Origin: an uncultured Candidatus Saccharibacteria bacterium
GTDB taxonomy: Bacteria; Patescibacteriota; Minisyncoccia; Phycocordibacterales; DATDWN01
Length of the DNA stretch: 49,366 bases
Reading direction: 5' to 3'
Assembly (NCBI GenBank): GCA_964468795.1
Contig: CAYXWL010000001.1
Span: 96,221-145,586 of the forward strand
Shown here: positions 3,957-46,582 of the stretch, in pieces
Position numbering within the stretch: position 1 is the first letter of the stretch
Layout: each line of letters starts with the position of its first letter
Program-made: the position numbers and the translations under genes
The notes under the pieces: generated by a model
What the model was told of the DNA's origin: nothing
What the model saw: only the letters and a program-made list of their open reading frames with translations
Database searches by the model: none

Positions 3957-3998
3957 AGCCCCGATCGACTTTGGATTTCTCCATTGTCAATCGGGGCT
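3957..3998 (-). terminator. hairpin downstream of GC-rich unit A
   Basis: agccccgat / atcggggct: 9-bp GC-rich stem, 25 nt after the stop of 4024-4671. Confidence 0.45.
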
Positions 3999-4023
3999 TG
4001 TGTGTCGGCGCTGTGCCGGTGTA

Positions 4024-4671
4024 CTACAGGAGTCCGCGGATCGAATCCGCCTCCTCCTTGCGCTTGCTGAGGAGCCTCTGACGCTGCGTCTGAGCAGCGG
4101 CGATGTTGAGCTCGGTCGCGCGATCGTCGCGGTTCTTCTTCGCGAGTCGCTTCGTTTCTTCCTCCCGAACCATGCGCACACGGTCGCGCTTGCGCTGTTC
4201 TGCATCGGCCTCGACGAGCACCTTACTCATCGAGTTGTACGCCATGATGCGCTGATCGAAGGTGCCGTTCGTCTCGACCCTGACGGCCTCCTCGAGTTCC
4301 TTTCGGAACTTCTCGAGGCGGGCGAGAAGATCGGCGTCGAAGCCATCTTCGCGCCGGAGACGAATCTCACGAACGAAGAAAGCCTCCTTGGCGACGGTTG
4401 GATCCTGTCCTTCTGCCACCTCCGCCATCTGGCTGACGACGGAGTTGCGCAGGAACTTTCCCAGGATTGAGCGGCCGACGGAGAAGATCTCCCCGGCCTT
4501 CGCGATGGCGTCGTCCTGCTGACCCAGTTCGATATGGCCAGCCATGGCTTCCACCATCCCCTTGATCGGTTCGCCAACCTTGAATCCCGTCACCGACTTC
4601 ATCGTGGTGATGAGAGTCTTCACACGGTCGGTCGACTGCTCGAGGGTCATGCCGTTGGGAATCTTCTTCAT
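4024..4671 (-). CDS. GC-rich hypothetical protein (unit A), charged and probably coiled-coil C-terminal half
   Basis: ATG (MKKIPNGMTLEQ) is preceded by GGAGG at 5-nt spacing. 37/60 G+C in 4021-4080, strong G/C third-position bias. C-terminal part is E/R/K/A-rich. No family recognised. Confidence 0.6.
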   Translation of the reverse strand: MKKIPNGMTLEQSTDRVKTLITTMKSVTGFKVGEPIKGMVEAMAGHIELGQQDDAIAKAGEIFSVGRSILGKFLRNSVVSQMAEVAEGQDPTVAKEAFFVREIRLRREDGFDADLLARLEKFRKELEEAVRVETNGTFDQRIMAYNSMSKVLVEADAEQRKRDRVRMVREEETKRLAKKNRDDRATELNIAAAQTQRQRLLSKRKEEADSIRGLL

Positions 4672-4775
4672 CTCAACCTCCAAAGTTTTCCTCAAAGAGC
4701 GAAATTGCTCTCCAGGAAAATAGGCTTATAAATAAGCTAAGCTCATTTTCCTGTGAACAAATCTTTATAGTTAAA

Positions 4776-4804
4776 AGTATAGCATATAAAAATATATATG
4801 TCAA
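4776..4804 (-). promoter_or_regulatory. sigma70-type promoter for unit A (TTGACA-17-TATACT)
   Basis: Reverse complement reads TTGACAtatatatttttatatgcTATACT. It would give a leader of about 100 nt containing hairpins AGGAAAAT/ATTTTCCT and AGAGC/GCTCT. Confidence 0.5.
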
Positions 4805-4833
4805 ATAAATTTTGTGAAGAAATCTAACCTACC

Positions 4834-4859
4834 AAAAACGGCTCAATTGAGCCGTTTTT
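4834..4859. terminator. bidirectional intrinsic terminator downstream of rpoD
   Basis: aaaaacggctc-aatt-gagccgttttt. Confidence 0.65.
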
Positions 4860-4861
4860 AT

Positions 4862-4983
4862 AAACTTTCATAATTTGGATGAAATCCGATGTGAGGAATT
4901 TAAAATACGAGGAGCCTTATTGAACATAAGGTGACGAGCATTTTAAATTCGGGAACTAGGAGTTCGCCAAATTTGGAAGTTTT
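4862..4983. repeat. structured inverted-repeat element R1 (same subfamily as 43385-43513)
   Basis: Imperfect outer arms aaactttcataatttgg / ccaaatttggaagtttt. Perfect 10-bp stem aatttaaaat/attttaaatt. Apex gccttat-tgaac-ataaggtga. Ends 3 nt before the rpoD stop. Confidence 0.6.
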
Positions 4984-4986
4984 ATT

Positions 4987-6258
4987 CTAATAATAGTTTC
5001 GAAGGCGATTGATCTTCTCATGCTGTCTGATCTTCTCATGCGCCTTCGCCTCAATCTGCCTAATTCTTTCTCGTGTCACACCGAATTCCTTTCCTACTTC
5101 CTCGAGTGTATGAGTTACTCCGTCAACCAATCCATGTCTTAGCTCCAAAATCTTTCTCTCTTTTTCTGGCAAATCGTTCAAAATTTCTCGCACCTGATCT
5201 GAAACAATCCTCCGTGCAGATTCCTGATCTGGAGAAAGAATTTTTTCATCTGCCAAGAAATCCCCAAGCTTTGATTTTGAATCATCATCTTCGCCGATAG
5301 GTGTTTCTAGCGACAGCGTTGATTGATCGATTTTTTCTATAGTGTAAATCTTATCAACAGAAAGATTCATTTCAGTTGCGATTTCTTCTGGCAATGGATC
5401 TCGGCCCAAATCCTGTGCAAGCCTTCGCACTACCTGCTTGTACTTGGCGATTGTTTCAACCATATGCACAGGCACTCGGATAGTTCTAGACTGATCAGCC
5501 AATGCTCTCGTGATTGCCTGCCTTATCCACCAAGTTGCGTACGTCGAAAACTTGTAACCTTTTGTCCAATCAAATTTATCTACAGCCTTGAATAGTCCCA
5601 AGTTTCCTTCCTGAATAAGGTCGAGAAGAGTAAGGTCTGCAGATCTGTTTGCGTATTTCTTTGCAATTGAAACCACAAGTCGCAAGTTTGCTCGTGCTAA
5701 AAGATTTTTTGCTTCCTCATCCCCTGCCTCGATTCTCTTTGCAAGCTCTTTTTCCTGGCCTCCGGAAATAAGCGGATACTGTCCGATTTCTTTTAGATAC
5801 ATTTGGATGGAATCGTATGAAGACTCTCCGCCTCTTCCGTAAGTATATTTCTTTCCAAGCAGATCTTCGCTAGGATTCTCGAGAAGTCCTCCTCCTTCCA
5901 AAATATCTACTCCGCTTGTCTGTAGCTTTTCGTAAAGCTCATCTAGAAAAACAATATCTTCTTCGACGTGAGGAAACTCTTTTAGGATTTCATCATAAGT
6001 GATATAGCCTTTTTCCTTTCCCTTAGATAAAAGTCTAGCAAGACCGGCTTCTTGCCTATCTTCTTTCTTTACTACAGGCTTTGCTCCAGCCTTAACAGCA
6101 GATGTTGCAAGGGCGACGTGAGCTTTTTTCTTTGCCCGGATTTTAGGAAGAGCAACTTTCTTTGCCTTTTTAACCTTTGACGCCTTCTTCACCACTTTTT
6201 TTGCGGACTTTCGCGCCTTAGGATTATTCTTTTTTGACTTTGTTTTACCTTTTTTCAT
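4987..6258 (-). CDS. rpoD: RNA polymerase sigma factor RpoD (sigma-70), K/A-rich N-terminal tail
   Basis: Regions 1.2-4 are recognisable ([57 protein letters not shown]). Overlaps the dnaG 3' end by 14 nt. Confidence 0.95.
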
Positions 6259-7642
6259 TTCTATTTTTTATTGAATTGAGTTTTTGGGAGAGAGTTTGGC
6301 AGATTTCAAGGTATTTTAGGACCTCGCTGCTGTTTCTGCTTTGTTCTGCTTTTTGCAAGTTTATCATTGCATCTGCGAAATCTTTTTTCAGGTACTCTTC
6401 TTCGAGTCCGCGCAGAAGCTCATTTATTTCTAGATTTAAATTATCTTTATTATTATAATAACTTTCCGTTTCAAATAATAGTGCTTCCCTGTCTTTTTCC
6501 AATGTTTTCAAAAGTTCTTCTGTTCTGCCGTTGAATATCTCGCCCGTCTTTTTCTCTATTGATTCTATGTCTACACTTGCTCCCGCATTTTTATTTCCTC
6601 TTAGCCATATCAGTAGTCCCAACACTTTCTTTTCGATTATATCCAGCCTTTTGCCTTGAGGGGGAGCCGTGCCTTGAGGCGGTGGAGAATAAACACCGGG
6701 ACTTTGCTCCAACTTTTTTAGATCATCCCACAAAGCTTCTTCTTTTATAAATGTCTTCTTTGCAATATTTTTAACGAAGTGGGATTTTTCGATAGATGAG
6801 GACAGTAGTGCAATATAAGGCAGAACATTTTTTCTTATCTCTTCGCCGAGAGCCCTGCCTTCGAGTTTCTTTTCTAAAAGCTTATCAGTGTAAAAGTCCA
6901 CAATATGCTTTGATCCTCTGACTACTTCCTTTAGCTTTTCTGGATCTTCCTTGGCGAGGTCAGCAGGATCTTTGCCCTCTGGCATTTGAGCTACTTTGAG
7001 CTCCATGCCTAGCCTCAATGCTATTTGAGCGCTTCTGTTCGATGCTGTAAAACCAGCTTCGTCTCCGTCATATGCCATGATTATCCTGTTTGAAAGCCTT
7101 CTTAATTTTATCAAGTGATTTTCCGTAAGGGCTGTCCCCGAGGAAGCAACTGTGTTTGTTATGCCTGCCTGATGAAGCATAACAAGGTCCATCTGCCCCT
7201 CGACCAAAATAGAATAATCTTTCAGCCTAATTTCTTTTTTAGCCTTATCAAGCCCGAATAATATTTCAGATTTATTGAACAGCTCTGTTTCTGGACTGTT
7301 TAGATACTTTGGAGATTTGTCATCTGCAACAAGAATTCGCCCAGAGAAGCCGACAATCCTGCCCGATGAATCTGCAATCGGAAACATTATTCTTCCTCTG
7401 AAAGTATCGTAAAAAGAAGAAACTCCTCCCTCTTTTCTTTTTATAAGGCCGGTATCTAACATTTCAGCGTCGCTTACGCCTTTTGATTTCAAGTGGTCAT
7501 ACAAATCTCTCCACTCGAGCGGAGCGTATCCTATCCTGAAGCCTTTTATTGTTTCTTTAGTAATGCCTCGGCTGGCAATGTAGTCTGAAGCGGGCCTGCT
7601 TTCTGAAAGCTTGTTTTCATAAAACATAGTTGCCTGTTCCAA
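6245..7642 (-). CDS. dnaG: DNA primase DnaG, RNA-polymerase/TOPRIM and C-terminal part, downstream of an in-frame TAG
   Basis: TOPRIM motifs ([19 protein letters not shown]). In the same frame as 7694-8005, separated only by TAG at 7694-7696. Confidence 0.85.
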
Positions 7643-7693
7643 AACAGCGTGCAGTTTGTCCTTTCGGGGTTTTTCGGCAGTTCCATGACTTTC

Positions 7694-7969
7694 CTAACTT
7701 ACGCCAGCTCTATCGGCCAAAACTTTCAGACTTCCGATAAAATCTAGGCCTTCGAACTCTTGAACAAAAGTGAAGATATCCCCTTTTGCATGACAGCCGA
7801 AACAATAGTAGCTTCCTCTATCCGGAGACACGAAAAAGGATGGCGTCTTTTCATTATGAAATGGACACCTTCCTTTGAAATTCGCGCCCGCTTTTTCAAG
7901 CTTTATATATGAGCCGATTAGCGAGACAATATCTATTTTTGATTTTATGAGGTCAACAGATGATGACAT
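7694..7969 (-). CDS. dnaG: DNA primase DnaG, zinc-binding domain segment ending at an in-frame TAG
   Basis: CPFHNEKTPSFFVSPDRGSYYCFGCHAKGD zinc ribbon. Likely start is MSSSVDLIK at 7969. Confidence 0.85.
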   Translation of the reverse strand: MSSSVDLIKSKIDIVSLIGSYIKLEKAGANFKGRCPFHNEKTPSFFVSPDRGSYYCFGCHAKGDIFTFVQEFEGLDFIGSLKVLADRAGVS

Positions 7970-8044
7970 AATTTTTTTAGTCTTCACCCCCTTTTCACAA
8001 TCCAACTACAATCTTAACCTAGCAAGATGAGATTTCTCTGAAAC

Positions 8045-11000
8045 CTACTGCTGAACTTCGTACGGCAACGGTCTCTTTGATCGCAAATCTTCGATAAGCT
8101 TTGCTTTCTTTGAACCCTTGAATCCTGTACCTGCTGGAATAAGTCTTCCAAGAATAACGTTCTCCATAAGTCCTGAAAGCTCGTCCTCATTTCCCCTTAG
8201 GGCTGAGCCAATAAGCATTCGAGTAGTGTGCTGGAATGATGCTGCAGCTAGGAAGCTCTTTCGAGATAGTGAAATGTCTGTAATACCCATCACGACATCC
8301 TCTGCCTTTGCCTCCTCCTTTCCTTCTGCCTTTACTCGAGCATTTTCTTCTGCAACATAAGCTAGCTCGACGATATCTCCTTCCAAGAAGTTAGTATCAC
8401 CTGAAGATTTTATCTTCTTTCGAGAGAACATTTGTCTTACGATAGTTTCGATGTGCTTTCGAGACACTGTTTCTCCTTGAAGCTCGTATGGTCGGTTGAT
8501 TTCGTGAATAATGTAATCGATTGTCTTCTCCTTTCCTGCATATTTGAACAAATCATCAATATCTGCAGAACCGTCTGTTATCATATCTCCTCGTTTTACC
8601 TCATCACCAACTTTTACGTAGATAGTTCTGTATGGAGGTACGACGTATTCTATCTTGTCCTTTGTCTTTGTCCTGTCTTCAAGGTTTGGAGTAATGACAA
8701 TAGTCTTTTCCTTGTCAGTTACTCTGATTTCAGAAACTGTTCCGGAAACTGAGCAGACTACTGCAGGGTTCTTTGGCTTTCGCTTTTCTAGAATCTCTTC
8801 CACTCGTGGAAGACCCTGAATGATGTCTCCTCCAACTGAGGCGGCACCGGCAGCGTGCTTTGTGTTCATTGATAGCTGTGTTCCTGGCTCTCCGATAGCC
8901 TGTCCTGCAACTGTTCCAACTGCTTCTCCAAGTTCAACCACTTTGTTCTTTCCAAGATCAACTCCGTAGCACTTTACGCAAATACCGTTGAGAGTCTTGC
9001 ATGATAGAGGTGATCGAACTTTTACAGCATTGACACCAGCAGCCTCTACAGCTTCTGCATCCTTCTTTGAAAGAAGATGGTCTTTTTTGAATAGCACTTC
9101 CCCACTTGGAGAAACAACGTCAGCAGCCAAGAATCTTCCCTTGATGTTCTTTGCGATTGAAATTTCCATTCCAATAGCTGAGTTCTTGTCTATGACAATG
9201 TGATCCTTTGTTCCGCAATCCTCTTCCTTTATCATCGTGTCCTGAGCCACAACGAACAGCTTTCGAGTAAGGTAACCAGCCTTTGCAGTGTTTAGAGCAA
9301 GGTCGGTAAAGCTCTTTCGTGTACCGTGTGTAGTAATGAAGTATTCAAGAGGTGTAAGTCCTTCTTTTGAAGATGAGATGATTGGGAATTCGATAGTTTC
9401 TCCGAAGACGTTTGAAATAAGTCCCTTCATACCTGCCATCTGAGTTACGTTCGCCATCGAACCTCGAGCTCCAGAAGACACCATGTCTGCTACTGATCCG
9501 TTCTTTGGAAGTGTCTCAGGCATAATCTTTTCAATCTCTGCCTTTGCTCCGTGCCAAATTTCAGTTGTTTGTCTCTTTCTCTCTTCTTTTGAAATAAGCC
9601 CCTGATTAAAGTGTTCTATAACTGTATCAGCTTTTGATTTTGCCTTTGCGATGATAGAAGACTTTGCTTCTGGAATGACGATATCTTCAAGTCCCCATGT
9701 GATACCAGAGTAAGTAGCGTACTTGAATCCGAAATTCTTGATAGCATCAATTATCTTCGGTACGTTTTCAATTCCATACTTTTCAATTAGATCATCTACA
9801 AGAGTTGAAATTTTCTTTCGGTTTATTTCTCCGTTTATGAATGGATAATCCTTTGGCAATACAGAGTTGAACAATAGTCTTCCTACTGTAGTATCGAATA
9901 TCTTTCCTTCAAATCCCTTGTATTTCTCTGAATTTGTAGGAAGAACTTTTATTTTTGCTCGGAAAGACACTTCTCCCAAATCGTATGCCATGATAGCTCG
10001 GTTAGGATCAGCAAACATCTTTCCCTCTCCCTTATCTCCTGAAACTTCCTTTGTCATCCAGTAGCAACCAAGCACGATATCAAGCATTTTTGCTGATACA
10101 GTAGGATCTCCAGAACCTGGCTTTAGAATGTTCTTGTCCGAAGCCATTATTTCCTTTGCCTCAAGCTGTGCCTCATCTGAAAGAGGAACGTGAACGGCCA
10201 TCTGGTCTCCATCGAAGTCTGCGTTGAAAGCAGAACATACTAGAGGGTGAAGCTGGATAGCGTTTCCTTCGATAAGCACTGGTTTGAAAGCCTGAATACC
10301 AAGCCTGTGAAGGGTAGGTGCTCGGTTAAGAAGAACATACTTCTCTCTAATTACTTCTTCAAGGATTGCCCATACTTCTGGAATTCCATCCTCAATCAGC
10401 TTTGATGCGCCTCTTATGTTGTAAGCCAGTTCCTTCTGCAAAAGCTGAGAAATAACAAACGGCTTGAATAGCTCAAGAGCCATGTGCTTTGGAAGTCCGC
10501 ACTCTGAAAGCTTTAGATCGGGGCCCACAACGATAACTGATCGTCCTGAGTAGTCTACTCTCTTACCAAGAAGGTTCTGTCTGAAGATTCCTCTCTTTCC
10601 TTTCAAGTTATCTGCCAAAGACTTCAGCGGTCGTCTCTGCGACTGATTTACTGCTCCGCTTGCTGAACCGTGACGTGCAGAGTTGTCGATGAGAGCATCA
10701 ACTGCTTCCTGCAAGATTCTTTTTTCGTTTCGCAAAATAACATCTGGAGCATGAATTTCTTTCAGCTTCTTTAGTCGGTTGTTTCGGTTTATTACCCTTC
10801 TATACAAATCGTTCACGTCTGAAGTCGCATATCGTCCTCCATCTAGCGGAACCATAGGTCGCAATGCCGGCGGAATAACAGGGATGTGCGTTAGGAACAT
10901 CCACTCTGGCCTAATGTTTGAATTTATCATTGCTGAAACTACGCTGATTCTCTTTGAAATCTTTGCAGCATCAACACTGCTTGCCTTTGCATGCTCTTCG

Positions 11001-11710
11001 TTAAGCTGAGAGAGAAGCTTGTTCATGTCTATCTTCTTGAAGATGTTGAAGATAGCTTCTGCTCCGATTGAAGCTTCGAACATTGTTCCGTACTTCATTC
11101 CGAAGTTGTAGTACTCGACTTCATCAAGCACTCGTCCTTCCTGAATAGACTCGATCTCCCGCTTTGCATTAAGAAGCATTTCCTTTACTGCCTCTTTTGT
11201 CTTTTCATCCTGCAAGCTTTTTATTTTTGCCTTGTACTCTGAATCAAGATCCTTTAGATATCTTGTCCTGTCCTCTTCTGAAACTTTTGTAACGATGTAT
11301 CCGGCAAAGTATATAACCTTCTCGATATCTGCAACTGAAATACCTAGAACCATAGCGATTCGGCTTGGCATAGACTTTAGGAACCAGATGTGAGAAACCA
11401 CTGTTGCAAGCTCGATGTGTCCCATTCGCTCTCTTCGAACGATAGATCGAGTGATTTCAACTCCACATTTTTCACAAACTATTCCCTTGTATCTTATTCC
11501 TCGGTACTTTCCGCAATAGCATTCGTAATCCTTGTCTGGGCCGAAAATCTTTTCATCGAAAAGTCCGTTCTTTTCAGATCGCTGAGTTCTGTAGTTAATA
11601 GTTTCAGGCTTTGTAACTTCGCCGAAAGACCACTCCTTAATTCTCTCAGGAGAAGCGACTTTAAGCGCTATTGTCTCGAAATCATTTGAATTTTCTGTTC
11701 TTGTTTTCAT
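8045..11710 (-). CDS. rpoC: DNA-directed RNA polymerase subunit beta'
   Basis: NADFDGDQM catalytic motif, zinc-binding Cys cluster CYCGKY...CEKCGVE, 1221 aa. Confidence 0.97.
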
Positions 11711-11732
11711 GTTTTTGATTGAGAATTAAGTT

Positions 11733-14700
11733 TTAAGCTTCGTACTTGTGACCGTCTAGCAATTCTTTCGACCCTTTCTTTATCTGAACATCCAGTGCCA
11801 AACCTCTAAGATTGTTTAGCAACACGTTAAACGACGCAGGCGTATTCATCTGAGTGATAGGAAGTCCTTTCACGATTGCGTCGAACGCTGCTGATCGTCC
11901 TGTAATATCGTCAGACTTTATTGTCAAAATTTCCTGCAGAGTATGTGCAGCTCCGTGACCGAGTAGCGCCCACACTTCCATTTCTCCAAATCTCTGTCCT
12001 CCATTCTGAGCCTTTCCTCCGAGAGGCTGCTGTGTAATAAGAGAGTATGGACCGATTGATCGCATGTGGATCTTGTCCTCCACCATGTGGTGAAGCTTCA
12101 TTATGTACATGTAGCCCACTACAACTTCCTGCTCGAAGGCTTCTCCTGTTCTTCCATCATACAGCTTCATCTTTCCTGATTCTGAGAAGCCAGCTTTCTT
12201 TAATTCGTCTTTTATTTCATCGTTTGTAGCTCCAACGAAAGGAGGAACGATAGCTTGATATCCAAGTGTATTTGCTGCAAGACCCAAGTGAAGCTCGAGA
12301 ATCTGTCCCAAGTTCATTCTTGATGGCACTCCAAGCGGTGTCAAAATAACATCAATAGGCGTTCCATCTGCCATATATGGCATATCCTCTTCTGGAAGTA
12401 TCTTTGAAATAACTCCCTTGTTTCCGTGTCGTCCAGCAAGCTTGTCTCCTACAGACACATTTCTTAGCTGTGCAACCTCGATATAAATCTGCTTTATGAT
12501 TCCTGAATCAAGCTTGTCTCCCTTTTCTCGTGAGAATATTTTTACGCTGATAACTCGTCCTCGCTTTCCTCCTTCCATTCTCTCTGATGTATCTTTTACA
12601 TCATGAGCCTTCTCGCCGAAAAGGCTTCGAAGTAGTCTTTCTTCTGGAGTAAGCTGTGTCTCTCCCTTTGGAGTAATTTTTCCAACCAAAATGTCTCCTG
12701 GTCTTACCTCTGCTCCAACTCTGATGATTCCGTCTTCTGCCAAGTTCTTAAGCTTTGACTCTCCGACGTTTGGAATATCGCATGTTGTAACTTCAGGACC
12801 TAGCTTTGTATCTCGCACGTTCACTACGAACTCTTCAATATGTATAGATGTGAACTTTGAATCCTTTACTACTCTTTCAGAAAGGATGATAGCGTCTTCG
12901 TAGTTTGATCCAGACCATGACATGAAAGCAACGAGCATGTTCTGACCGATTGCAGCCTGACCATTGTCTGATGCTGATGTGTCAGCAAGAAGATCGCCTT
13001 TCTTAACTTTGTCTCCGACTGAAACTGAAGGTCTCTGGTGGAAAGCTGTAAATCCGTTTGTTCTGGAGAAAGTAATCAGCTTGTATTCCTTCTCCTTTCC
13101 TTTGTCATTCTTTACAACGATCTTTACGCCGTCAGCATGAGTAACTACTCCCGCTTCTTCAGCGATAACAAGTCGTCCAGTATCTCGGATAGCGTCTACC
13201 TCCATTCCTGTAGCAACTAGAGGAACTTCTGGGATAACGCAAGGAGTTGCCTGCCTCTGCATGTTTGATGCCATTAGCGCTCGGTTTGCTTCGTCGTGGT
13301 TTAGGAAAGGAATCATTGATGTGGCAATTGAAAATGCCTGGCTAGTTGAAACATCAATGAAATCAACCTTGTCCTTTGAAACTGTGCTTGGCTCTCCGCC
13401 AATTCGAACTTCTACCTGATCAACAGTAATCTTGTCGTCTTCTACCGGAGTTGCTGCATGGGCAATAGCATACTCCTCTTCTTCTGAAGCGTTTAGATAA
13501 ACTATTTCGCCTGTAACTTTTCCGTTCTTTACTTTTGCATATGGAGTCTCGATCATTCCAAAGCTGTTGATTCGAGCATAAATAGCAAGCCTTAGCACAA
13601 GACCGATGTTCGGACCTTCTGGCGTATGTATTGGACAAATTCTTCCATAGTGAGATGGGTGAACGTCTCTAACTTCGAATCCTGCTCGTGTTCGGTTTAG
13701 TCCTCCAGGTCCGAGAGCTGAAAGAAGTCTCAGGTTTTCGATTTCAGCAAGAGGATTTTCTTGCGTCATGAACTGTGAAAGCTGGTTTGTTGTAAAGAAT
13801 TCCTTGATTCTTGCCTGAAGTGGTTTTGGAGAAATAAACTGTATAGGCAAAGTAACATCCGTCTCTATAGTAGACATCTTGTTCTGAATGTTTCTCTTTA
13901 TCTGGGCCATACCAGTTCGAATCTTTGCTTGGAATAGTTCTCCGACAAATCGAACTCGCCTTGATCCTAGGTGATCAATATCGTCTTCCTGTGCATGAGG
14001 AGTGTTGTTCAAAAGCGCGATGTGAGAAATGATTGTGACAATATCGTCCAAGTTTATTGTCTTTCTCTTAAGCTCCTTCTCATCCATCTTCTTTCCGAAC
14101 CTCTTGTTAAATCTGTATCGTCCTACAGGTGAAAGGTCATATCTCTCGGCATCAAATATAGACATGACGAATTCCTTGGCATTTTCTGCTGTAGCCAAGT
14201 CGCCGTCTCGCAATTTTTTGTGAATCTCAATAAAAGCCTCATCTATGCTCTTTCCGTGATCCTTTGCAAGAGTCTTTACAATAGACTGTGTGCCGAATTC
14301 ATCTCCTTCAAATAATTTCTTTATGGCCTCATCATCTTTTGCTCCAAGCGCTCTAAGCAGAGTTGTAGCAGCAAACTTTCGCTTTCGGTCGATTCGCACA
14401 TATATAACGCCGTCGTGATCTGACTCGATCTCAACCCATGCGCCTCTTGAAGGAATAACCTTCGCACCGAACATTTTTCGTCCCTTTATCTCGCCTGCTG
14501 TAAAGAATACTCCGTATGATCGGGCTAGCTGAGGCACGATTACTCGCTCAACTCCTGAAATAATAAATGTTCCGTGCGAAGTCATTAGGGGGAAGTCTGC
14601 CATGAAAATTTCCTGCTCTTTTTCTGAACCGATTACATGGTTCTTTAATTTTACCTTCACCTTCAAAGGAGCTTCGTAAGAAAGCTTGTTGTCCTTTGCG

Positions 14701-14930: not shown

Positions 14931-15143
14931 ATAAAAAATTGTACTTTTTAATAATAGAACCCCTTACAAAGACAACAGTTCACCGAAACGAAAAAACGAA
15001 CAAAAAACAGACCATCCCCTTATTATGGTTTGCTTTTTGTTGACTTTAATTAGCGAGTATGTCGCAAAGTAGTTTCGAGAAGCAATTATCCCCCTTATAA
15101 TTCCCCCTTCTTCTGCCAAAACTCAATCGTGAAGTTAATAAGA

Positions 15144-15173
15144 AGTATACGTCAAGTAGGTATATTTTGTCAA
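15144..15173 (-). promoter_or_regulatory. candidate rpoBC promoter (TTGACA-18-TATACT)
   Basis: Reverse complement reads TTGACAaaatatacctacttgacgTATACT. Implies a leader of about 210 nt. Confidence 0.4.
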
Positions 15174-15285
15174 CAAATATGTCAACAATGGTATCCCCAA
15201 CCTATTCACAAGGCTGTTTGACACACTAAAAAACAGCCTTCCTTGACCTATATTACAGTTCAATTTCCCATTTATTTCACTTATT

Positions 15286-32755: not shown

Positions 32756-32756
32756 C

Positions 32757-33539: not shown

Positions 33540-33575
33540 ATTTGCACCTTCCTTTCAAACAACTCACCGGGTTTA

Positions 33576-33604: not shown

Positions 33605-33654
33605 TAAAAGAAAAAGCACGCCTTCGAAAAGCAGGAGTGCTTTTCTGTAGCGTG

Positions 33655-33918: not shown

Positions 33919-33975
33919 ACGTCTCCTTCCGAAAAAGTCTAAAGATAGGATATCACAAAAAAGCTTCGATAAAAA

Positions 33976-34671: not shown

Positions 34672-34754
34672 AATGTAGGTATTATATCATTAAAAAACTG
34701 CTTTGTCGATTAACCTATTTTTATGACTATATAGTTGTGCATATTTCTTTATCA

Positions 34755-34954: not shown

Positions 34955-35043
34955 CTCAACGAAATATGCTTCAGATCCGATTTTATTAACAAAATATTGT
35001 AAAAGGAAATAAGTATGCTTTTCCTAAATTTGTTGAGTTGATA

Positions 35044-35122
35044 TTTTTTAAGAGGCTTCGCAAGGCGGGTAGCCGAGACTTGAGGAATTTTTCAGCAGAA
35101 AAATATCCGTACTCTTAAAAAA
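35044..35122. repeat. short structured inverted-repeat element R3b
   Basis: 11-bp perfect terminal inverted repeats ttttttaagag/ctcttaaaaaa. Shares gcttcgcaag with R3/R4, tgaggaattt with R1, and a CAGCAG-loop AT-rich hairpin with R3. Confidence 0.55.
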
Positions 35123-35156
35123 TAACAACGAGAAAGAATTTAGGAAAATCCTCAAG

Positions 35157-36321: not shown

Positions 36322-36374
36322 AATGAAGATACATTACATTAAAAGTCCCGAAAAATCAAATTTAAAAAAAGTGA

Positions 36375-36399
36375 ACCCCGACTGTTCTTTAGTCGGGGT
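36375..36399 (-). terminator. intrinsic terminator after the GC-rich NUDIX gene
   Basis: accccgact-gttcttt-agtcggggt: 9-bp stem. Confidence 0.55.
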
Positions 36400-36407
36400 C
36401 AGAGTGG

Positions 36408-36893
36408 TCATGCGACCATGTACAGAGATCTGAGGTGACGAATCGAGTTCACCAGAGCCCCTCGATGGGTTTTCATCAGCTGTCCCAACCCTCTCGGATG
36501 GTCCAAGCTGAAACTGAGCTGAGAGAGAGGCATCCAGAACGGGGGGAAAAGAATATCCTCATTATCCCGGATAACCTCTGTGCGAAGTTTCCCCTCTAAG
36601 TCAGAAAAGGCAACGAGATAAAAGTAGTGGTAATGGTTATCTCCGCTGAACCGGCTATACACCAGAAGAGGGTTAAGATCTATGCCCTGCTTCGGTTTAA
36701 GACCAGTTTCCTCTTTCAGTTCTCTCAGTGCGGTAAATGCTGGAGATGTCTCTCCGCTCTCTGCACTGCCACCAGGAAATCCATTCAGAATTTCGCCGGT
36801 GTAAAATTCTGTAACCCTACACTTGCCCTGTATAAGTACTGACAGGGCGCCGTTCTCTTCTTTCCAAACGACAATCCCTGCTGAATAAGACAT
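36408..36893 (-). CDS. GC-rich NUDIX hydrolase (unit H)
   Basis: Nudix box GGSAESGETSPAFTALRELKEETGL. GGAGG SD. Confidence 0.75.
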   Translation of the reverse strand: MSYSAGIVVWKEENGALSVLIQGKCRVTEFYTGEILNGFPGGSAESGETSPAFTALRELKEETGLKPKQGIDLNPLLVYSRFSGDNHYHYFYLVAFSDLEGKLRTEVIRDNEDILFPPFWMPLSQLSFSLDHPRGLGQLMKTHRGALVNSIRHLRSLYMVA

Positions 36894-36932
36894 TACGTCC
36901 CTCCATTAGCCAAAATAACACATTAAATATTA

Positions 36933-37535
36933 TTAGTCAATAAGGTTCTTGCAAAATGATACCCTATGAAAATCACAGATTCCATGCTTATTTATAGCCA
37001 TTCTGTGCGATAAAGTTCCGTAGCCTTTATTTATGTGGAAGTTGTAGGGCAAGTATTTTGCATGAGACTTCCTCATTATTTTGTCCCTCGAAACCTTTGC
37101 CAAAATAGATGCCCAAGCAATAATTTTCTCCTTCTCGTCGCCTTTGATTATTGTCTTTTGATTCTTGAAATTACTCGGAGCCTTGAGTCCCCCATCGAGG
37201 AGTATTCTAGGCTGGTCATTAACATTTAGCGACTTTAAATTTTTTTCAATAGCAAATTTTATTGCATGTGATATTCCCTTCTGGTCTATTATCTTGTTGG
37301 AGATATGTGTTATGGCGTAAAAAAATTTGTTTCCATTTTTGAGGGATTTCAAAATTTTTGAATATTCTTCTCTTTCTTTTTCACTGAGCTTCTTGCTGTC
37401 CTTGCCGGATCTGGGCAAAAGCTTAGATTTTTTAAGTTTTTGGTATTGCTTCTCTTCGCAAAACACGGCACAAACAGTAACAGGCCCAGCAAGCGGTCCT
37501 CTTCCCACTTCATCTATGCCAATAATCATTTTCAT
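36933..37535 (-). CDS. rnhB: ribonuclease HII
   Basis: IIGIDEVGRGPLAGPV signature. Start at MKMIIGIDE with TGaTATCAT 7 nt upstream. Confidence 0.88.
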   Translation of the reverse strand: MKMIIGIDEVGRGPLAGPVTVCAVFCEEKQYQKLKKSKLLPRSGKDSKKLSEKEREEYSKILKSLKNGNKFFYAITHISNKIIDQKGISHAIKFAIEKNLKSLNVNDQPRILLDGGLKAPSNFKNQKTIIKGDEKEKIIAWASILAKVSRDKIMRKSHAKYLPYNFHINKGYGTLSHRMAINKHGICDFHRVSFCKNLID

Positions 37536-40880: not shown

Positions 40881-40885
40881 AAAGA

Positions 40886-40912
40886 GGCCGCCGTGCATAT
40901 TGCACGACGGCC
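40886..40912. terminator. hairpin between convergent dnaE and unit I
   Basis: ggccgccgtgca-tat-tgcacgacggcc: 12-bp stem with 1 mismatch. Confidence 0.55.
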
Positions 40913-40921
40913 GTTGGAACT

Positions 40922-41206
40922 CTAAGCGTATGTGAGAACGCGGAGGGGATGCCTGAGTTTCTCCGACTCGAGAATGGCATCAAGCTGCCTTTCTTCGATC
41001 TCGAGCACGTCCTGCATGCCATTCAGCCGATCCTTCCACCTAGAGAGCTCGACGCGATCAGTCTGTTGCATTGAGCTCATGCGGAGCTTGAAGCTCGGCA
41101 GATTATCTGCGGTCCTGTACCGCAATTCCATCTCCTTGTCCCATTCCGTATATTTCCGGAGCTCTTCGATGAAATTGAAGAGTCCCCGGATTGCTGTCTC
41201 GACCAT
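40922..41206 (-). CDS. GC-rich hypothetical helical protein (unit I)
   Basis: Start at MVETAIRGL with GGAGG SD. No family recognised. Confidence 0.5.
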   Translation of the reverse strand: MVETAIRGLFNFIEELRKYTEWDKEMELRYRTADNLPSFKLRMSSMQQTDRVELSRWKDRLNGMQDVLEIEERQLDAILESEKLRHPLRVLTYA

Positions 41207-41222
41207 TGTGCCTCCGCAGAAG

Positions 41223-41251
41223 ATAATGACTTGTTTTTTAAAATATGTCAA
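41223..41251 (-). promoter_or_regulatory. sigma70-type promoter for unit I (TTGACA-17-CATTAT)
   Basis: Reverse complement reads TTGACAtattttaaaaaacaagtCATTAT. Confidence 0.45.
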
Positions 41252-43384: not shown

Positions 43385-43513
43385 ATTAGAATCTCCAGAT
43401 CTGGATGCAGTTCTAGGAAGATAAGAAAAATACCGCAAGCCTTATAAGTATAAGGTGAGCGGTATTTTTCGAAGTCTGACAACGAAATGCACCAGAGGGG
43501 TGGAGATTCTAAT
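43385..43513. repeat. structured inverted-repeat element R5 (same subfamily as 4862-4983)
   Basis: 13-bp perfect terminal inverted repeats attagaatctcca/tggagattctaat. 11-bp stem aaaaataccgc/gcggtattttt. Apex gccttat-aagt-ataaggtga. The right arm covers the gyrB stop (43509-43511). Confidence 0.7.
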
Positions 43514-45581
43514 AATCGAGGGTAGCTGTCGTTGCGTTTGATTGGATGAAAGACTTTCTTGCTGGCACATCTGTACCCATGAGCACATCGAACACCTTGT
43601 CTGTATTTTCGTCTACGTCAATTGTCACCTGCTTTAACACTCGTCGTGCAGGGTCCATAGTTGTTTCCCAAAGCTCCTCGGCATTCATTTCTCCGAGACC
43701 CTTGTATCTCTGTATATTAAACTTTGACTTCTTCGCAGTCGAAGCTTTTTTACCCTTTGTATTTTCCTCCTCCTCTCCTTCTTCAGTATTTTCTGTACCC
43801 TCTTCACCCTCTCCTATCTCTCCGATCTCTTCTACCTCCTCATTTCCAACAATCTTTGCTTTGTCTTCGTCTGAATATGCGTAAAAGATTTCTTTTCCTT
43901 TCTTTATTTTATATAGAGGCGGTTGAGCAATGTAAACATATCCTCCATCAATAAGGGGTCGGAAAAATCTGTACAAGAGTGTCAGAATAAGAGTTCGGAT
44001 GTGAGCACCATCAACGTCGGCATCGGTTGCAATGATAATCTTGTGATACCTTAGTTTTGTAATATCAAATGTATCTCCAATAGCAGTACCTAGAGCAATA
44101 ACAAGATTTTTTATCTGCTCTGATTCAAGCATTCTATCAAGTCTTGCCCTTTCAATGTTCAAAATCTTTCCTCGTAGTGGCAAAATAGCCTGAGTCTTTC
44201 TGTCTCGTCCAGTCTTTGCTGTACCTCCCGCAGAGTCTCCCTCCACAATAAACAGCTCTGACTCTTCAGCAGATTTTGACTGGCAATCTGCAAGCTTTCC
44301 AGGAAGAGTCATGCCTTCTAGTGCTCCCTTTCGCAAAACAGAGTCCTTTGCAGCCTTTGCAGCCTTTCGCGCTTTTAGGGCAAGAACTACTTTGTTTATT
44401 ATCGCCTTGGCATCATCTGGATTTTCCTCTAGGAAATCGTTAAATGCTTCTGCAAATATTGTGTTTACTGCTCCTTGTGCTTCTACTGTTCCAAGTTTTG
44501 CTTTTGTTTGTCCTTCAAATTGAATTTCTCGTAGCTTTACTGACACTACAGCTGTAAGACCTTCCAAAACATCTTCACCAGTAAAGTTGTCGTCGTTTTC
44601 TTTTATAAGATTGTTCTTTCGTCCGTATGTATTGAGCGCTCGAGTAAGAGCAGTCTTAAATCCTGTAATATGAGTTCCACCTTCAGGAGTATGGATGTTG
44701 TTTGCAAAACCAAGAATTCGAGCAGTAATATCATCTACATATTGCAGAGAAACTTCTACAGATTCATATTCGTTTGTTTTCTTTTCTATGTAGAAAACAT
44801 TTTTGTGAACAGGCTTAAATGTAGAGTTGTAAAACTTTACTAGTGAAAGGAGCCCTCCCTCAAAGTAGAAAGACATTGAAGGGATCTCTAGGTTTAGATC
44901 AGAAATCTTGAATGTGTTTGCTTCATCTATCTTGCCTTCGTATTTTGAAACGTCATTTACAGTGATTCGAAGTCCTTTTACCAAATATGCCTGCTGTCTT
45001 AGATGATCAACAACTCTCTTAAATGAGAAATCTATAACTGGGAAAATGGCTGGATCTGGTTCGAAAGTCACAATAGTTCCGCTTTGCTTTGTTGATCCGA
45101 TTTTCTTTACCGCAGCTTTTTTCTTTCCCTGAGAATATTCCTGCATGTAAACTCCGCCGTCTTTGTGCACTACCACTTTGCAGTATGTAGAAAGAGCGTT
45201 GACCACAGAAGCTCCCACTCCGTGGAGTCCTCCTGAAACTTTGTATCCCCCATCTTCACCGCCAAATTTTCCTCCAGCATGGAGAGTTGTCATGATAGTT
45301 TCCAGAGCTGAAACTTTGGTTTGCTTGTGAATATCTACAGGAATACCTCGTCCGTTGTCTGTAACTCTGATTCGATTGTTTGGAAGGAGTGTTACTTCGA
45401 TATCGTTGGCAAAACCACCCATGGCTTCGTCTCGAGAGTTGTCAAATATTTCCCAAATCAAATGGTGAAGTCCATCAAGACCTGTTGTTCCAATGTACAT
45501 TCCGGGTCGCTTTCGTACCGGCTCGAGCCCTTCAAGTATCTGTATCGCATCTGCTCCGTAAGTGTCCTTTTTAGCCATTAT
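43509..45581 (-). CDS. gyrB: DNA gyrase subunit B
   Basis: LEGLEPVRKRPGMYIG, GGLHGVG, EGDSAGG, PLRGKILNIE, DADVDGAHI motifs. Start at MAKKDTYG. Acidic insertion near the C-terminus. Confidence 0.95.
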   Translation of the reverse strand: MMAKKDTYGADAIQILEGLEPVRKRPGMYIGTTGLDGLHHLIWEIFDNSRDEAMGGFANDIEVTLLPNNRIRVTDNGRGIPVDIHKQTKVSALETIMTTLHAGGKFGGEDGGYKVSGGLHGVGASVVNALSTYCKVVVHKDGGVYMQEYSQGKKKAAVKKIGSTKQSGTIVTFEPDPAIFPVIDFSFKRVVDHLRQQAYLVKGLRITVNDVSKYEGKIDEANTFKISDLNLEIPSMSFYFEGGLLSLVKFYNSTFKPVHKNVFYIEKKTNEYESVEVSLQYVDDITARILGFANNIHTPEGGTHITGFKTALTRALNTYGRKNNLIKENDDNFTGEDVLEGLTAVVSVKLREIQFEGQTKAKLGTVEAQGAVNTIFAEAFNDFLEENPDDAKAIINKVVLALKARKAAKAAKDSVLRKGALEGMTLPGKLADCQSKSAEESELFIVEGDSAGGTAKTGRDRKTQAILPLRGKILNIERARLDRMLESEQIKNLVIALGTAIGDTFDITKLRYHKIIIATDADVDGAHIRTLILTLLYRFFRPLIDGGYVYIAQPPLYKIKKGKEIFYAYSDEDKAKIVGNEEVEEIGEIGEGEEGTENTEEGEEEENTKGKKASTAKKSKFNIQRYKGLGEMNAEELWETTMDPARRVLKQVTIDVDENTDKVFDVLMGTDVPARKSFIQSNATTATLDY

Positions 45582-45665
45582 TTTATTTAATTTAAGTGAG
45601 TAAATTATAGCAAAATTCAACCGTCGCCACAAGGAAAAACCGGGATTTTTTGAGAGATTTTATAC

Positions 45666-45695
45666 TTGACAATCTACAGTATAATATTGTATAAT
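45666..45695 (+). promoter_or_regulatory. sigma70-type promoter for unit J (TTGACA-18-TGtATAAT)
   Basis: TTGACAatctacagtataatatTGTATAAT. Confidence 0.45.
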
Positions 45696-45742
45696 TAATA
45701 AAAATAAGGCATAACGCCCAAGTTCCCTACAAGGAGTCAGAA

Positions 45743-46138
45743 ATGGCCAGCATGATTAAGTTTGTCCTTGCAGTTTTGTTCGTGATGTCAGTGATCGTGT
45801 TCGGCCTCAACTCGGCCACTCACACCGAACGCAACACGACTGGATTCACCCAGACAACCAAGATCTCGAATGACCATGTACCGTTCGACCGCTACTGTGG
45901 CTACTTGCTCTCAGTCGGCCACGGCTCAATCACGTTCGAAGATAGAGAACCAATCGAGATCGTGCATTTGACCTTTAGGGGTCGAACTGCCGACTCGACA
46001 ATCACAAGGATTCTCTACGGAGACGAAGGTCGTCTTCGCAAGATCCGAGCTGGCCAGTTCTACGACATCGGCGCTCGGCGGTACAACGACAACTGGTCGT
46101 TTCCACGACGCCTCGACGTGGTGAGTGGTTGCAACTAG
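45743..46138 (+). CDS. GC-rich hypothetical secreted or membrane-anchored protein (unit J)
   Basis: AAGGAG SD. Signal anchor IKFVLAVLFVMSVIVFGL. No family recognised. Confidence 0.55.
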   Translation: MASMIKFVLAVLFVMSVIVFGLNSATHTERNTTGFTQTTKISNDHVPFDRYCGYLLSVGHGSITFEDREPIEIVHLTFRGRTADSTITRILYGDEGRLRKIRAGQFYDIGARRYNDNWSFPRRLDVVSGCN

Positions 46139-46167
46139 ACCACATCACCCCACCCCGACAACAGAAA

Positions 46168-46198
46168 CCCCGCCCAGCGGATCTGTGGCGGGGTTTTT
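46168..46198 (+). terminator. intrinsic terminator after unit J
   Basis: ccccgcc-N12-ggcgggg-ttttt. Confidence 0.6.
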
Positions 46199-46203
46199 CG
46201 TAC

Positions 46204-46232
46204 TTGACAAAATAAATAAATCCATGTAATGT
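46204..46232 (+). promoter_or_regulatory. sigma70-type promoter for unit K (TTGACA-17-TAATGT)
   Basis: TTGACAaaataaataaatccatgTAATGT. Confidence 0.45.
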
Positions 46233-46249
46233 ACATGACGGATTAAATA

Positions 46250-46320
46250 GAGCTAAGTAGCTGAAAGAATTCACTTTCCCTCCTTAGCTCATGCGGCATG
46301 ACGCCGCGAGCAAGGAGGAG
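46250..46320 (+). promoter_or_regulatory. structured leader with SD-sequestering helix and a competing upstream helix
   Basis: CCTCCTT-a-GCTC-at-GCGGC [atgac] GCCGC-GAGC-a-AAGGAGG buries the SD (46312-46318). GAGCTAAG (46250-46257) can instead pair with CTTAGCTC (46283-46290). Confidence 0.5.
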
Positions 46321-46322
46321 AG

Positions 46323-46550
46323 ATGAGGGAGTATGACCTTTTCAAAGTGATCGCAGGCACGGACCTGCGGGGATGCTTCAGCCGGGACTACCGGCTGTGG
46401 GAAGAGTGGGTAGCAAATCCCGCCCTCAAGGCCAGGGGATATAAAATCCTCAGGCAATGGTATTCTGTCGACGGCGACTCTTTCGGACCTTTGGTCCGCG
46501 GAGTTATAGTCGAAAAGGACGGCGAGAAAAAGCTTCTCACATACGGCTAG
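46323..46550 (+). CDS. GC-rich hypothetical 75-aa protein (unit K)
   Basis: AAGGAGG SD. No family recognised. Confidence 0.5.
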   Translation: MREYDLFKVIAGTDLRGCFSRDYRLWEEWVANPALKARGYKILRQWYSVDGDSFGPLVRGVIVEKDGEKKLLTYG

Positions 46551-46556
46551 AGTCAG

Positions 46557-46582
46557 GGCGCTGGAGAAATCCAGCGCCTTTT
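46557..46582 (+). terminator. intrinsic terminator after unit K
   Basis: ggcgctgga-gaaa-tccagcgcc-tttt. Confidence 0.65.

Follow-up and report, generated by a model that had tools for sequence, protein, structure and literature searches.

The 49,366 nucleotides (nt) of contig CAYXWL010000001.1 analysed here, referred to as the window, raise the question of why a series of A+T-rich core genes should be interrupted, again and again, by short G+C-rich coding sequences (CDSs) that appear to bring their own expression signals. From the list of open reading frames (ORFs) we delimited 51 genes in the window: 16 CDSs of this unusual kind, which form 14 units and are termed cassettes below (each named by the first coordinate of its CDS), and 35 core genes, the functions of which were confirmed via Pfam or precomputed annotations. 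The cassette CDSs take up 15% of the window length and 31% of its genes. In the reading that we favour with modest confidence, these 16 CDSs represent 14 autonomous accessory expression units that are located in the gaps between core transcription units and stem from a mobile, Patescibacteria-specific pool of genes. Judged by sequence, the window organism is itself a member of Patescibacteria (Paceibacteria-like): the relatives of its GyrB protein are all found in Patescibacteria metagenome-assembled genomes, with the nearest species representatives 70–81% identical, and are labelled as Paceibacterota, Nomurabacteria, Zambryskiibacteria, Taylorbacteria or generically as 'Saccharibacteria'.

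The initial annotation had set these CDSs apart as a G+C-rich class, and this holds alike for sliding-window G+C, per-gene G+C, G+C at third codon positions (GC3) and codon usage. Whilst the window as a whole has a G+C content of 41.8%, sliding-window peaks of 0.47–0.64 lie exactly over the listed CDSs. Per gene, G+C ranges from 0.47 to 0.60 in the cassettes and from 0.30 to 0.45 in the core genes, without overlap, which means that G+C splits the two classes completely (Mann-Whitney U = 560 = 16 x 35, p = 1.4e-8); GC3 ranges from 0.43 to 0.79 versus 0.23 to 0.50 (means of 0.61 and 0.36, p = 2e-8), and a codon score against core usage averages -0.13 per codon in the cassettes and +0.09 in the core genes (p = 3e-8). 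Cassettes that are indistinguishable from the core in GC3 or codon usage, a possibility raised at the outset, were thus not what we found. The genes rpoB and rpoC and those for ribosomal proteins are A+T-rich like the other core genes, and within the cassettes G+C is lower at the second codon position than at the first and third, which is the pattern of real coding sequence. The composition had also been said to change close to the ribosome-binding site and the terminator, and averaging over the units confirms this: mean G+C rises from 0.27 at positions -60 to -20 to 0.49 at the Shine-Dalgarno (SD) sequence, stays at about 0.5 through the CDS, reaches 0.55 in the terminator and then falls to 0.31, a drop completed within about 40 nt of the stop codon, and hence the switch at the cassette borders is sharp.

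The two classes likewise differ in their translation signals. Counting as a strong SD any of the 5-mers GGAGG, AGGAG, GGGAG or GAGGG within 20 nt upstream of the start, we obtained 13/16 cassettes versus 2/35 core genes (Fisher p = 1e-7), with mean duplex energies with an anti-SD of -9.3 versus -1.9 kcal/mol. An SD had been claimed for every cassette: this stands for the 13, whilst the remaining three, which are all three genes of the 31656–33539 operon, have weaker sites or a stop/start overlap (AAGGAAGG, AAGAAGG and an overlapping ATGA). The accompanying claim that most core genes lack an SD is upheld, and one of the two core hits, that of trmD, is spurious, its apparent SD being the stem of the upstream cassette terminator. 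This stem (25664–25690, AAGGGAGGCAAGGCCTCCCTT, belonging to the 25694 cassette) precedes the longest trmD ORF and can be mistaken for its SD; from the sequence, the true trmD start is probably a downstream ATG preceded by TGTTATAGT, which fits the homologue lengths of 217–229 amino acids (aa).

At least 18 core genes exhibit a TATAAT-like -10 box ending 5–9 nt upstream of the ATG and therefore look leaderless. Examples of such boxes are found at 26948–26964, 31549–31565, 24199–24215 and 34672–34690, and gyrB (26965–28890, forward strand, GC3 0.40) can serve as the contrasting core gene, with a TATACT ending 8 nt before its ATG and no SD. In rpoC, rpoD, rpsB and tsf (the last in L135), which are operon-internal or highly expressed core genes, there is neither an SD nor a nearby promoter, and the upstream sequence is A/T-rich. 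Neighbouring core genes thus keep their own -10 boxes, as had been proposed, and in case of tspO the TATAAT directly follows the cassette terminator at 18825–18847. As far as the signals are concerned, there are indeed two initiation regimes: SDs in the cassettes, and leaderless or SD-less starts in the core.

At the level of transcription, promoters of the type TTGAC(A/T/C)-17-TAnnnT are present in nine or ten units, and strong hairpins followed by T-runs stand at 14/14 unit ends, which bears out the near-consensus promoters and the private terminator hairpins reported in the initial annotation. With the terminator score taken as the best hairpin up to 85 nt downstream of the stop codon, the cassettes average -23.8 versus -12.2 kcal/mol for the core genes (p = 2e-6). 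By these signals the cassettes would be separate units, each with its own promoter and its own terminator, and a typical unit would consist of a sigma-70-type -35/-10 promoter, a short 5' leader with a strong SD, an ORF or small operon, and an intrinsic terminator. Masking of the SD is clear only in the leader of the 46323 cassette and less so in those of 21732 and 4024. The 46323 leader (46262–46322, forward strand; folded part 46270–46322) has a predicted hairpin of -32 kcal/mol (z = -4.2), in which the SD AAGGAGG is masked through pairing with an CCCUCCUU further upstream. The sister species L100 retains the hairpin (-29 kcal/mol, z = -4.6) and differs only in the inner loop; this conservation argues for an SD that is in use in the cell and under regulation there. 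The predicted structure could act as a translational switch or RNA thermometer.

Comparison with relatives (L001–L136 denote the related loci or contigs compared with the window) reveals how the gaps are used. The core gene order around gyrB is conserved in L003–L013, yet the cassettes have no homologue at the same place in these relatives, except for the NUDIX cassette (32–41% identity, L012 and L004); the same gaps there hold unrelated small ORFs of their own, usually G+C-richer than the core and often GGAGG-led. Counted over all loci that retain both flanking genes, the gyrB/smc gap is occupied in 55/63 loci by 44 unrelated ORF families, the trmD/KH gap in 37/64 loci (28 families), the smc/rnc gap in 27/54 loci (23 families) and the pif1/trmD gap in 15/28 loci (11 families); the KH/S16 and rnc/nusB gaps, both within operons and empty in the window, are occupied in 6/71 and 7/53 loci. 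The most conserved slot is that of the NUDIX cassette, with 5 families in 11 occupied loci. Therefore, the cassettes occupy fixed, recurrently used slots between transcription units. Accessory units between core genes, likened in the initial annotation to the morons of phages, are thus supported by the conserved core order and the differing gap occupants, and the presence/absence comparison that it had suggested found gaps that are empty or hold other genes, and one unit replaced at 79% DNA identity.

This replacement separates the window from the sister species L100/L101, which we reached through the 90%-identity cluster of the 75-aa protein of the 46323 cassette; a metagenome scan with the Pif1-like helicase gave relatives of 71–80% identity only. 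Between the window and L100, the core gene 43509–45632 and the 46323 cassette, including its promoter, leader and terminator, align throughout. The segment 45677–46201 of the window, with the 131-aa cassette, is replaced by L100 3602–3964, an unrelated G+C-rich segment that encodes a 71-aa membrane protein: homology is lost at ACTTGACAA, the -35 box of the replaced unit, and picks up again at the ACTTGACAA of the next unit. Turnover occurs here as a whole unit with breakpoints at promoter -35 boxes, the breakpoints being known from this single event, 45743 versus L100. Target-site duplications and terminal inverted repeats beyond those of shuffled controls were not found at the cassette flanks, the cassette hairpins have no common k-mers except the -35 box of the next promoter, and no integrase, recombinase, transposase or phage structural gene was detected among the window proteins (Pfam/annotations). 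A transposon, insertion sequence (IS) or miniature inverted-repeat transposable element (MITE) was ruled out, as the flank repeats are no longer than in shuffled sequence and there is no transposase.

As to the origin of the genes, an exhaustive HMMER search of 1.84 billion representative proteins with nine further cassette proteins (neither the 4024 protein nor the ParB-like protein among them) returned no match beyond the query itself for 6/9, one or two weak matches for two, and seven matches of 38–47% identity for the 45743 protein. One relative of the latter, with a signal peptide and again led by a TTGACA-17-TGTATAAT promoter and an SD, lies at the L33/ClpB junction of another leaderless-type Patescibacteria genome. 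In the Patescibacteria chromosome of L136, a large serine recombinase adjoins an AAA_25 protein (532–4537), a few kb from the 45743-family homologue; this region may be an integrated element. The 4024 protein has a single homologue among 5.8 billion clusters, 50% identical, located at a bacA/RNase H junction of another A+T-rich Paceibacteria genome and exhibiting a GC3 of 0.75 in a genome of 38% G+C. In scans of IMG/VR, no relatives of the 4024 and ParB-like proteins were found. Thus, the cassette families are either unique to this species or limited to Patescibacteria. According to a published survey, 83% of the inferred horizontal transfers into Patescibacteria had another member of Patescibacteria as their source (PMC12455944).

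The ParB-like protein of the three-gene operon (287 aa) is one of a family that spans about 130 clusters, the source names of which are almost all Patescibacteria (two are labelled Anaplasmataceae and Methylomirabilis). Its AlphaFold2 model has a predicted local distance difference test (pLDDT) score of 92 and matches ParB, Noc and KorB with a Foldseek probability of 1.0; the model fits a ParB/Srx N-terminal fold followed by a helix-turn-helix (HTH) DNA-binding domain, and in the alignment the GRxR motif (G68, R69, R71) is invariant with D67 and H70 nearly so. Such a fold is characteristic of proteins that act in the partition of plasmids and chromosomes or in regulation. There is no ParA in the module, the partners being a 260-aa protein of HTH-like appearance and one of 78 aa, and all three genes are present in every context with upstream sequence, at the junctions mraZ/lysS, M16 peptidase/ligA and rnc/nusB (L002). 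Contigs of about 2.26 kb containing only this module were considered as a small circular element and rejected, as their ends do not overlap and one of them runs on into further genes. In L090–L093, several short metagenome contigs with the module break at the same base just past the terminator, which fits population-level presence/absence variation at the module boundary.

The SD split extends well beyond the window and is independent of G+C. The accessory ORFs with SDs in some 108 related loci lie at a GC3 of 0.43–0.57 whether that of the host core is 0.26 or 0.66, and SD-like motifs in core genes stay at background frequency in every bin. In L095, from a genome of 51% G+C, 7/7 accessory genes carry AAGGAG(G)-type SDs and no core gene does, with the accessory genes slightly less G+C-rich than the core; L046, described below, shows the same split. 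A 'high-GC donor' is therefore the wrong description: accessory GC3 has its own level whatever the host, and it is the silent sites of the present host that are A+T-rich. The most extreme contrast seen is an ORF adjoining capA in L005 (3542–4435; G+C 0.66, GC3 0.90) in a genome of 40% G+C. Composition can also be followed over time in the 46323 cassette, which shares 84–87% protein identity with its L100 orthologue: the two species differ at 47% of the fourfold-degenerate sites of the cassette (n = 30) and at 48% of those of the neighbouring core gene (n = 278), and this equal divergence indicates that both were inherited together. Fourfold-site G+C is nevertheless 0.60 and 0.63 for the cassette in the two species, versus 0.18 for the core gene beside it.

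A further observation concerns the ribosome. Among 135 loci, the 16S rRNA 3'-end motif was found only in L046, the GyrB of which is 52% identical to that of the window. The L046 16S rRNA (7781–9394) is a complete Rfam match with helix 45 and its GGAA loop intact, but its tail past helix 45 reads GGAAUAUUUCAAGG instead of GAUCACCUCCUUA, and CCUCC is absent from the 600 nt that follow. L046 has core genes without SDs and G+C-richer accessory genes with correctly spaced GGAGG, one of them (7150–7210; TTGACA-17-TATAAT-GGAGG-ATG) located about 600 nt from the 16S rRNA gene. For a subgroup of Parcubacteria, Tsurumaki et al. described 16S rRNA from which the anti-SD motif is missing (PMC9297842). In the window and the left and right extensions of its contig there is no rRNA gene; IMG/VR matches to AAGTCGTAACAAGG, considered as 16S candidates, proved to be chance matches.

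How, then, might the units have come to lie where they do? We propose that recombination with incoming DNA both adds and exchanges cassettes, probably without a dedicated recombinase; one route could be natural transformation, with the flanking core genes supplying the homology, and another microhomology at promoter and terminator motifs. The source would be a Patescibacteria-specific pool of largely single-lineage genes with about 50–60% G+C and SD-led translation, at least part of which would be linked to mobile elements, given the ParB/Noc/KorB fold of the 287-aa protein. The cassettes would appear G+C-rich here only since the host core is A+T-biased and their residence short relative to compositional drift. 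They would be translated through their SDs, and the core genes by leaderless or SD-independent initiation. Read-through from a cassette would place the core ATG inside a transcript without an SD; the private terminator would thus insulate the next core gene, which needs its own promoter for a leaderless mRNA. Variable roles at the cell surface, in host interaction or in conflict are probable for the products, which include small membrane or secreted proteins.

Several observations weigh against this proposal. If the 46323 cassette had simply drifted, an F81 back-calculation places its ancestral fourfold-site G+C at about 0.85–1.0, which is possible but extreme (n = 30 sites), and its high G+C would then look less like a remnant of its origin than like a property under active maintenance, although this is suggestive only. 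In the 4024 family, fourfold-site G+C is 0.75–0.82 in two A+T-rich genomes despite a protein divergence of 50%. The recombination mechanism is derived from one replacement event, no phage, plasmid or high-GC reservoir of cassette genes was found, and most cassettes are known from this species only. L046 combines the same pattern with a complete 16S rRNA without CCUCC, and the proposal does not account for the reading of its SDs.

The first two of these points feed the main rival explanation, which we regard as unlikely: the cassettes could be a resident second class of fast-evolving, lineage-specific genes, with selection or G+C-biased gene conversion preserving their SDs and G+C-rich codons, in a two-tier expression system of a leaderless core and SD-dependent accessory genes. 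The persistence of 0.60/0.63 fourfold-site G+C after 47% divergence beside a core gene at 0.18, the G+C-rich 4024 family in two A+T-rich genomes, an accessory GC3 of about 0.5 whatever the host value, the conserved SD-sequestering leader and the recurrence of the pattern across the clade would all follow. Genes that simply stay in place, however, do not account for one slot holding unrelated proteins of differing length in different genomes, for one unit replaced between close relatives, or for homologous families at differing junctions, and G+C-rich codons have no known selective reason, rpoB, rpoC and the ribosomal protein genes being A+T-rich. A resident class is in fact compatible with mobility and differs from the mobile accessory pool that we favour only in what maintains the composition.

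Direct transfer from high-GC organisms outside Patescibacteria, such as the host of an episymbiont or its phages, had been put forward in the initial annotation; the SDs and G+C-rich codons would then be donor leftovers. GC3 values of up to 0.79 here and 0.90 in a cassette of a relative, the canonical promoters and SDs, as in typical bacteria, and the L046 16S rRNA without anti-SD, which makes the L046 SDs look foreign to the resident ribosome, can be cited for such an origin. No homologue outside Patescibacteria-type contigs was found in either the 5.8e9 clusters or the 1.84e9 representatives, however, and as 6/9 proteins have no homologue at all and the families with relatives sit essentially on Patescibacteria-type contigs (at other Patescibacteria-type junctions in those inspected), a high-GC host donor is unsupported. 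Moreover, the SDs are perfect even in the least G+C-rich and presumably oldest cassettes, the SD-sequestering leader is conserved across species and one cassette is as old as a species split. We therefore consider this origin improbable and the proposed donor was not upheld.

L046 invites a more radical thought. An order of Patescibacteria may have given up SD initiation, with at least one member having lost the anti-SD, whilst its flexible genome keeps canonical G+C-rich SD cassettes; GGAGG would then be read by a factor other than 16S rRNA, as a second channel for accessory genes, or the cassettes would be built for the machinery of another cell, e.g. the host. We see little chance that this holds. 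The narrower claim, that the cassettes are not translated by the resident ribosome at all but through expression in a host cell after DNA or RNA transfer (for which Agrobacterium T-DNA is the comparison) or through a non-16S factor recognising GGAGG, appears slimmer still. It draws on the L046 16S rRNA that ends GGAAUAUUUCAAGG without CCUCC beside a textbook accessory-gene layout, on the lack of SDs in core genes including rpsB, tsf and rpoC, and on the published loss of the anti-SD in a Parcubacteria subgroup (PMC9297842). Against it stand that the only 16S rRNA in hand comes from the relative L046 and not from the window organism, that the cassettes are scattered rather than grouped in a bordered transferable element, that an SD-sequestering leader conserved in two species suggests regulation inside the cell, and that direct evidence of transfer is absent.

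An artefact (chimeric assembly, contamination during binning, or chance ORFs within inserts of G+C-rich non-coding DNA, e.g. structured RNAs) can practically be dismissed: overlapping ORFs on both strands of the G+C-rich segments, typical of stop-poor sequence, would be in keeping with it, but the 4024 junction and its flanks are 99.96–100% identical in at least seven independently assembled contigs from different ENA/SRA samples and ten cassette proteins looked up by exact sequence each occur on 3–11 contigs (NCBI, ENA, Logan), which excludes chimeric assembly and answers the question of junctions raised in the initial annotation, whilst the same layout recurs in unrelated assemblies of relatives, codon-position G+C varies as in coding sequence with correctly spaced SDs, proteins are conserved where synonymous sites are saturated, and RNA genes are absent from the window (no Rfam family, no tRNA; Rfam, ARAGORN), so that this explanation is refuted for the junctions tested.

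Where do autonomous accessory units of this kind stand among known systems? Phage morons, reportedly described by Juhala, Hendrix and colleagues around 2000, resemble them as single ORFs with their own promoter and terminator, lying between genes that are adjacent in relatives, with aberrant composition and accessory or unknown function; insertion between conserved neighbours, own signals (at the sequence level) and distinct composition are all found here. Residence in a phage or prophage is not: the cassettes lie in a cellular chromosome, flanked by rpoB/C, rpoD, dnaG, gyrB, smc, dnaE, trmD, S16, L32 and pheS, make up about 30% of the window genes and differ from their neighbours in initiation mode. 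The promoter-early stem-loop (PeSL) cassettes that Arbiol, Comeau and Krisch are said to have reported in 2010 from hyperplastic regions of T4-type phages are lineage-unique ORFs bracketed by a promoter motif and a stem-loop, and the 45743 exchange between two ACTTGACAA boxes is reminiscent of them; the present case differs in concerning a cellular genome and one event, and neither mini-circle intermediates nor a shared stem-loop sequence were found. Integron cassettes are likewise small, mostly single-ORF, lineage-unique mobile units with an imperfect palindrome at the 3' end. Theirs are promoterless, attC-ended and arrayed by intI/attI, whereas those of the window are dispersed, have their own promoters and end in terminator hairpins with T-runs, without RYYYAAC/GTTRRRY cores (no such attC-like pair in any cassette 3' flank) and without an integrase. 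An integron origin was ruled out on the lack of attC and of an intI/attI array and on the presence of own promoters.

The replacement-type flexible genomic islands attributed to Rodriguez-Valera and colleagues reportedly share with our units non-homologous genes at equivalent positions, exchange probably via flanking homology, and often surface products; the units here are single genes of 0.3–2 kb, many per 50 kb, each with full expression signals. We thus find that the cassettes fit morons by architecture and single-gene flexible islands by concept, whilst their cellular chromosome departs from the context that defines morons and PeSL cassettes. With regard to translation, the 'group C' genomes of GeneMarkS-2 (e.g. 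Actinobacteria and Deinococcus) mix leaderless and SD-led genes, and resemble the window in having leaderless first genes with a -10 box just upstream of the ATG alongside SD-led genes. There, however, the SD-led genes are mainly operon-internal core genes, whereas here rpoC, rpoD and tsf are SD-less and the SD is confined to accessory cassettes: on this comparison, the restriction of SDs to accessory genes is the reverse of what is usual in mixed genomes. In the searchable literature we found no paper describing such an accessory/core SD split in the candidate phyla radiation (CPR).

The individual units are given in their order along the window, on the reverse strand unless stated otherwise. 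Unit 1 (3957–4804) contains the CDS 4024–4671 for a 215-aa protein without family match (G+C 0.60, GC3 0.79); it has GGAGG 6 nt upstream of the ATG, TTGACA at about 4799 and a long-loop hairpin terminator at about 3960–4000. Unit 2 (18825–19688; CDS 18854–19639) encodes 261 aa with five hydrophobic transmembrane (TM)-like segments and no homologue among the 1.84e9 representatives, and exhibits the SD AAGGAGGG, the promoter TTGACC-17-TATGCT and the terminator at 18825–18847, after which comes the leaderless TATAAT-ATG of tspO. Unit 3 (19697–20186; CDS 19750–20142) codes for 130 aa with an acidic tail and no homologue (SD GGAGGG, promoter TTGAAA-17-TATAAA, hairpin of -32 kcal/mol), and unit 4 (21221–21700; CDS 21254–21637) for 127 aa, also with an acidic tail and with two weak homologues only (SD AGGAGGAG, terminator at 21221–21249, followed by the leaderless capA start). 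These two acidic-tailed proteins flank capA on either side; their mutual similarity is marginal (phmmer E of about 0.01 in the 16-protein set), and by sequence they may be distant paralogues, with no other paralogy within the cassette set. Unit 5 (21694–22541; CDS 21732–22478) encodes 248 aa with four TM-like segments and a weak M50-like match without HExxH (SD GGAGGGG, promoter TTGACT-17-TATTTT, terminator at 21694–21723).

Unit 6, on the forward strand (24264–24750; CDS 24315–24680, 121 aa, no homologue), combines the promoter ACTTGACAAAAT-17-TAAATT with the SD GGAGG and a hairpin of -35 kcal/mol. In unit 7 (25660–26110; CDS 25694–26074), the 126-aa protein has a hydrophobic N-terminus and one weak match (28% identity, L125), and the signals are the SD GAGGAGGG, a -10 box TATAGT and the terminator at 25664–25690. 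Within the gyrB/smc gap lies unit 8 (28927–29300; CDS 28968–29267, 99 aa, no homologue; SD GGGAGGG, terminator at 28927–28958). Unit 9 is the three-gene operon (31587–33604), with the promoter TTGACA-18-AATAAT at 33604–33575, the genes for the 260-aa protein (32757–33539, HTH-like by eye), the 78-aa protein (32519–32755) and the 287-aa ParB/KorB-like protein (31656–32519), and the terminator at 31587–31609. The 87-aa product of unit 10 (33610–33975; CDS 33655–33918) is Cys-rich with an N-terminal TM-like segment and has one homologue of 40% identity (SD GGAAGGAG, hairpin of -23 kcal/mol).

The NUDIX hydrolase of 161 aa is the product of unit 11 (36374–36940; CDS 36408–36893; SD GGAGGG, promoter TTGACT-17-TATTTT, terminator at 36374–36400), and the core nusB two genes off (35157–36038) carries a fused NUDIX domain. 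Unit 12 (40885–41251; CDS 40922–41206, 94 aa, no homologue) has the SD GGAGG, TTGACA at 41246 and a hairpin shared with the dnaE end. On the forward strand follow unit 13 (45664–46201; CDS 45743–46138), the 131-aa protein of which has an N-terminal TM or signal segment (promoter ACTTGACAAT-17-TGTATAAT, SD AAGGAG, terminator at about 46160–46195), and unit 14 (46202–46590; CDS 46323–46550, 75 aa; promoter ACTTGACAAAAT, SD AAGGAGG, terminator at about 46556–46585).

Four cassette products thus exhibit TM-like segments, and besides the NUDIX hydrolase and the ParB/KorB-like module the others are small and many of them acidic. Regarding the protein identities suggested in the initial annotation, NUDIX is solid and the ParB-like assignment holds by fold, whilst the M50 match is weak and below the Pfam cut-off. 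The remaining cassette proteins have no family match in Pfam, PHROGs or PADLOC-type libraries: PADLOC gave a marginal NUDIX match only, and PHROGs a weak ParB match together with a weaker match to a family of unknown function.

The core genes of the window encode a DsbA-like protein, a UvrD/PD-(D/E)XK helicase, RpoD, DnaG, RpoC, RpoB, YggU, an MGMT-like protein, MPG, a LexA-like S24 peptidase, TspO, CapA, the Pif1-like helicase, TrmD, a KH protein, S16, GyrB, SMC, RNase III, the NusB-NUDIX fusion, L32, RNase HII, DnaE, a class II aminoacyl-tRNA synthetase, PspC, a second GyrB/ParE-type protein, PheS and a GT2 glycosyltransferase. The dnaG gene (6245–8005) appears as two ORFs in the plain list (7694–8005 and 6245–7642), whilst gene callers predict a single 574-aa product on identical contigs: the split reflects start-codon choice and frame handling, not a frameshift. 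Two long A+T-rich gaps, 34672–35156 (about 485 nt, about 30% G+C) and 14931–15285 (about 355 nt), contain no convincing ORF or Rfam match; in L002 the counterpart of the former contains the ParB-like three-gene module. To the left of the window, L082 of the same strain (11495–12322) carries two further cassettes of the same type: the first (126 aa, G+C 0.48) has a GGAGG site, and the second is of 108 aa with G+C 0.57 and GC3 0.67.

Taken as a property of the lineage, the combination of SD, -35 box, private terminator and composition offers a rule, readable from sequence, by which flexible and core genome may be told apart in uncultured Patescibacteria. It would also indicate how genes are gained in minimal genomes: gene by gene, in fixed slots between operons and without the machinery of classical mobile elements. 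Genes for host interaction and conflict are most likely to be sought with success among the cassettes, the promoters and SDs of which would be ready parts for genetic tools in culturable Patescibacteria. What makes the system a puzzle is that the accessory genes keep textbook SDs, one of them with a conserved SD-masking leader, while the core uses none; solving it would tell how these ribosomes start translation and whether the accessory genes are controlled as a class.

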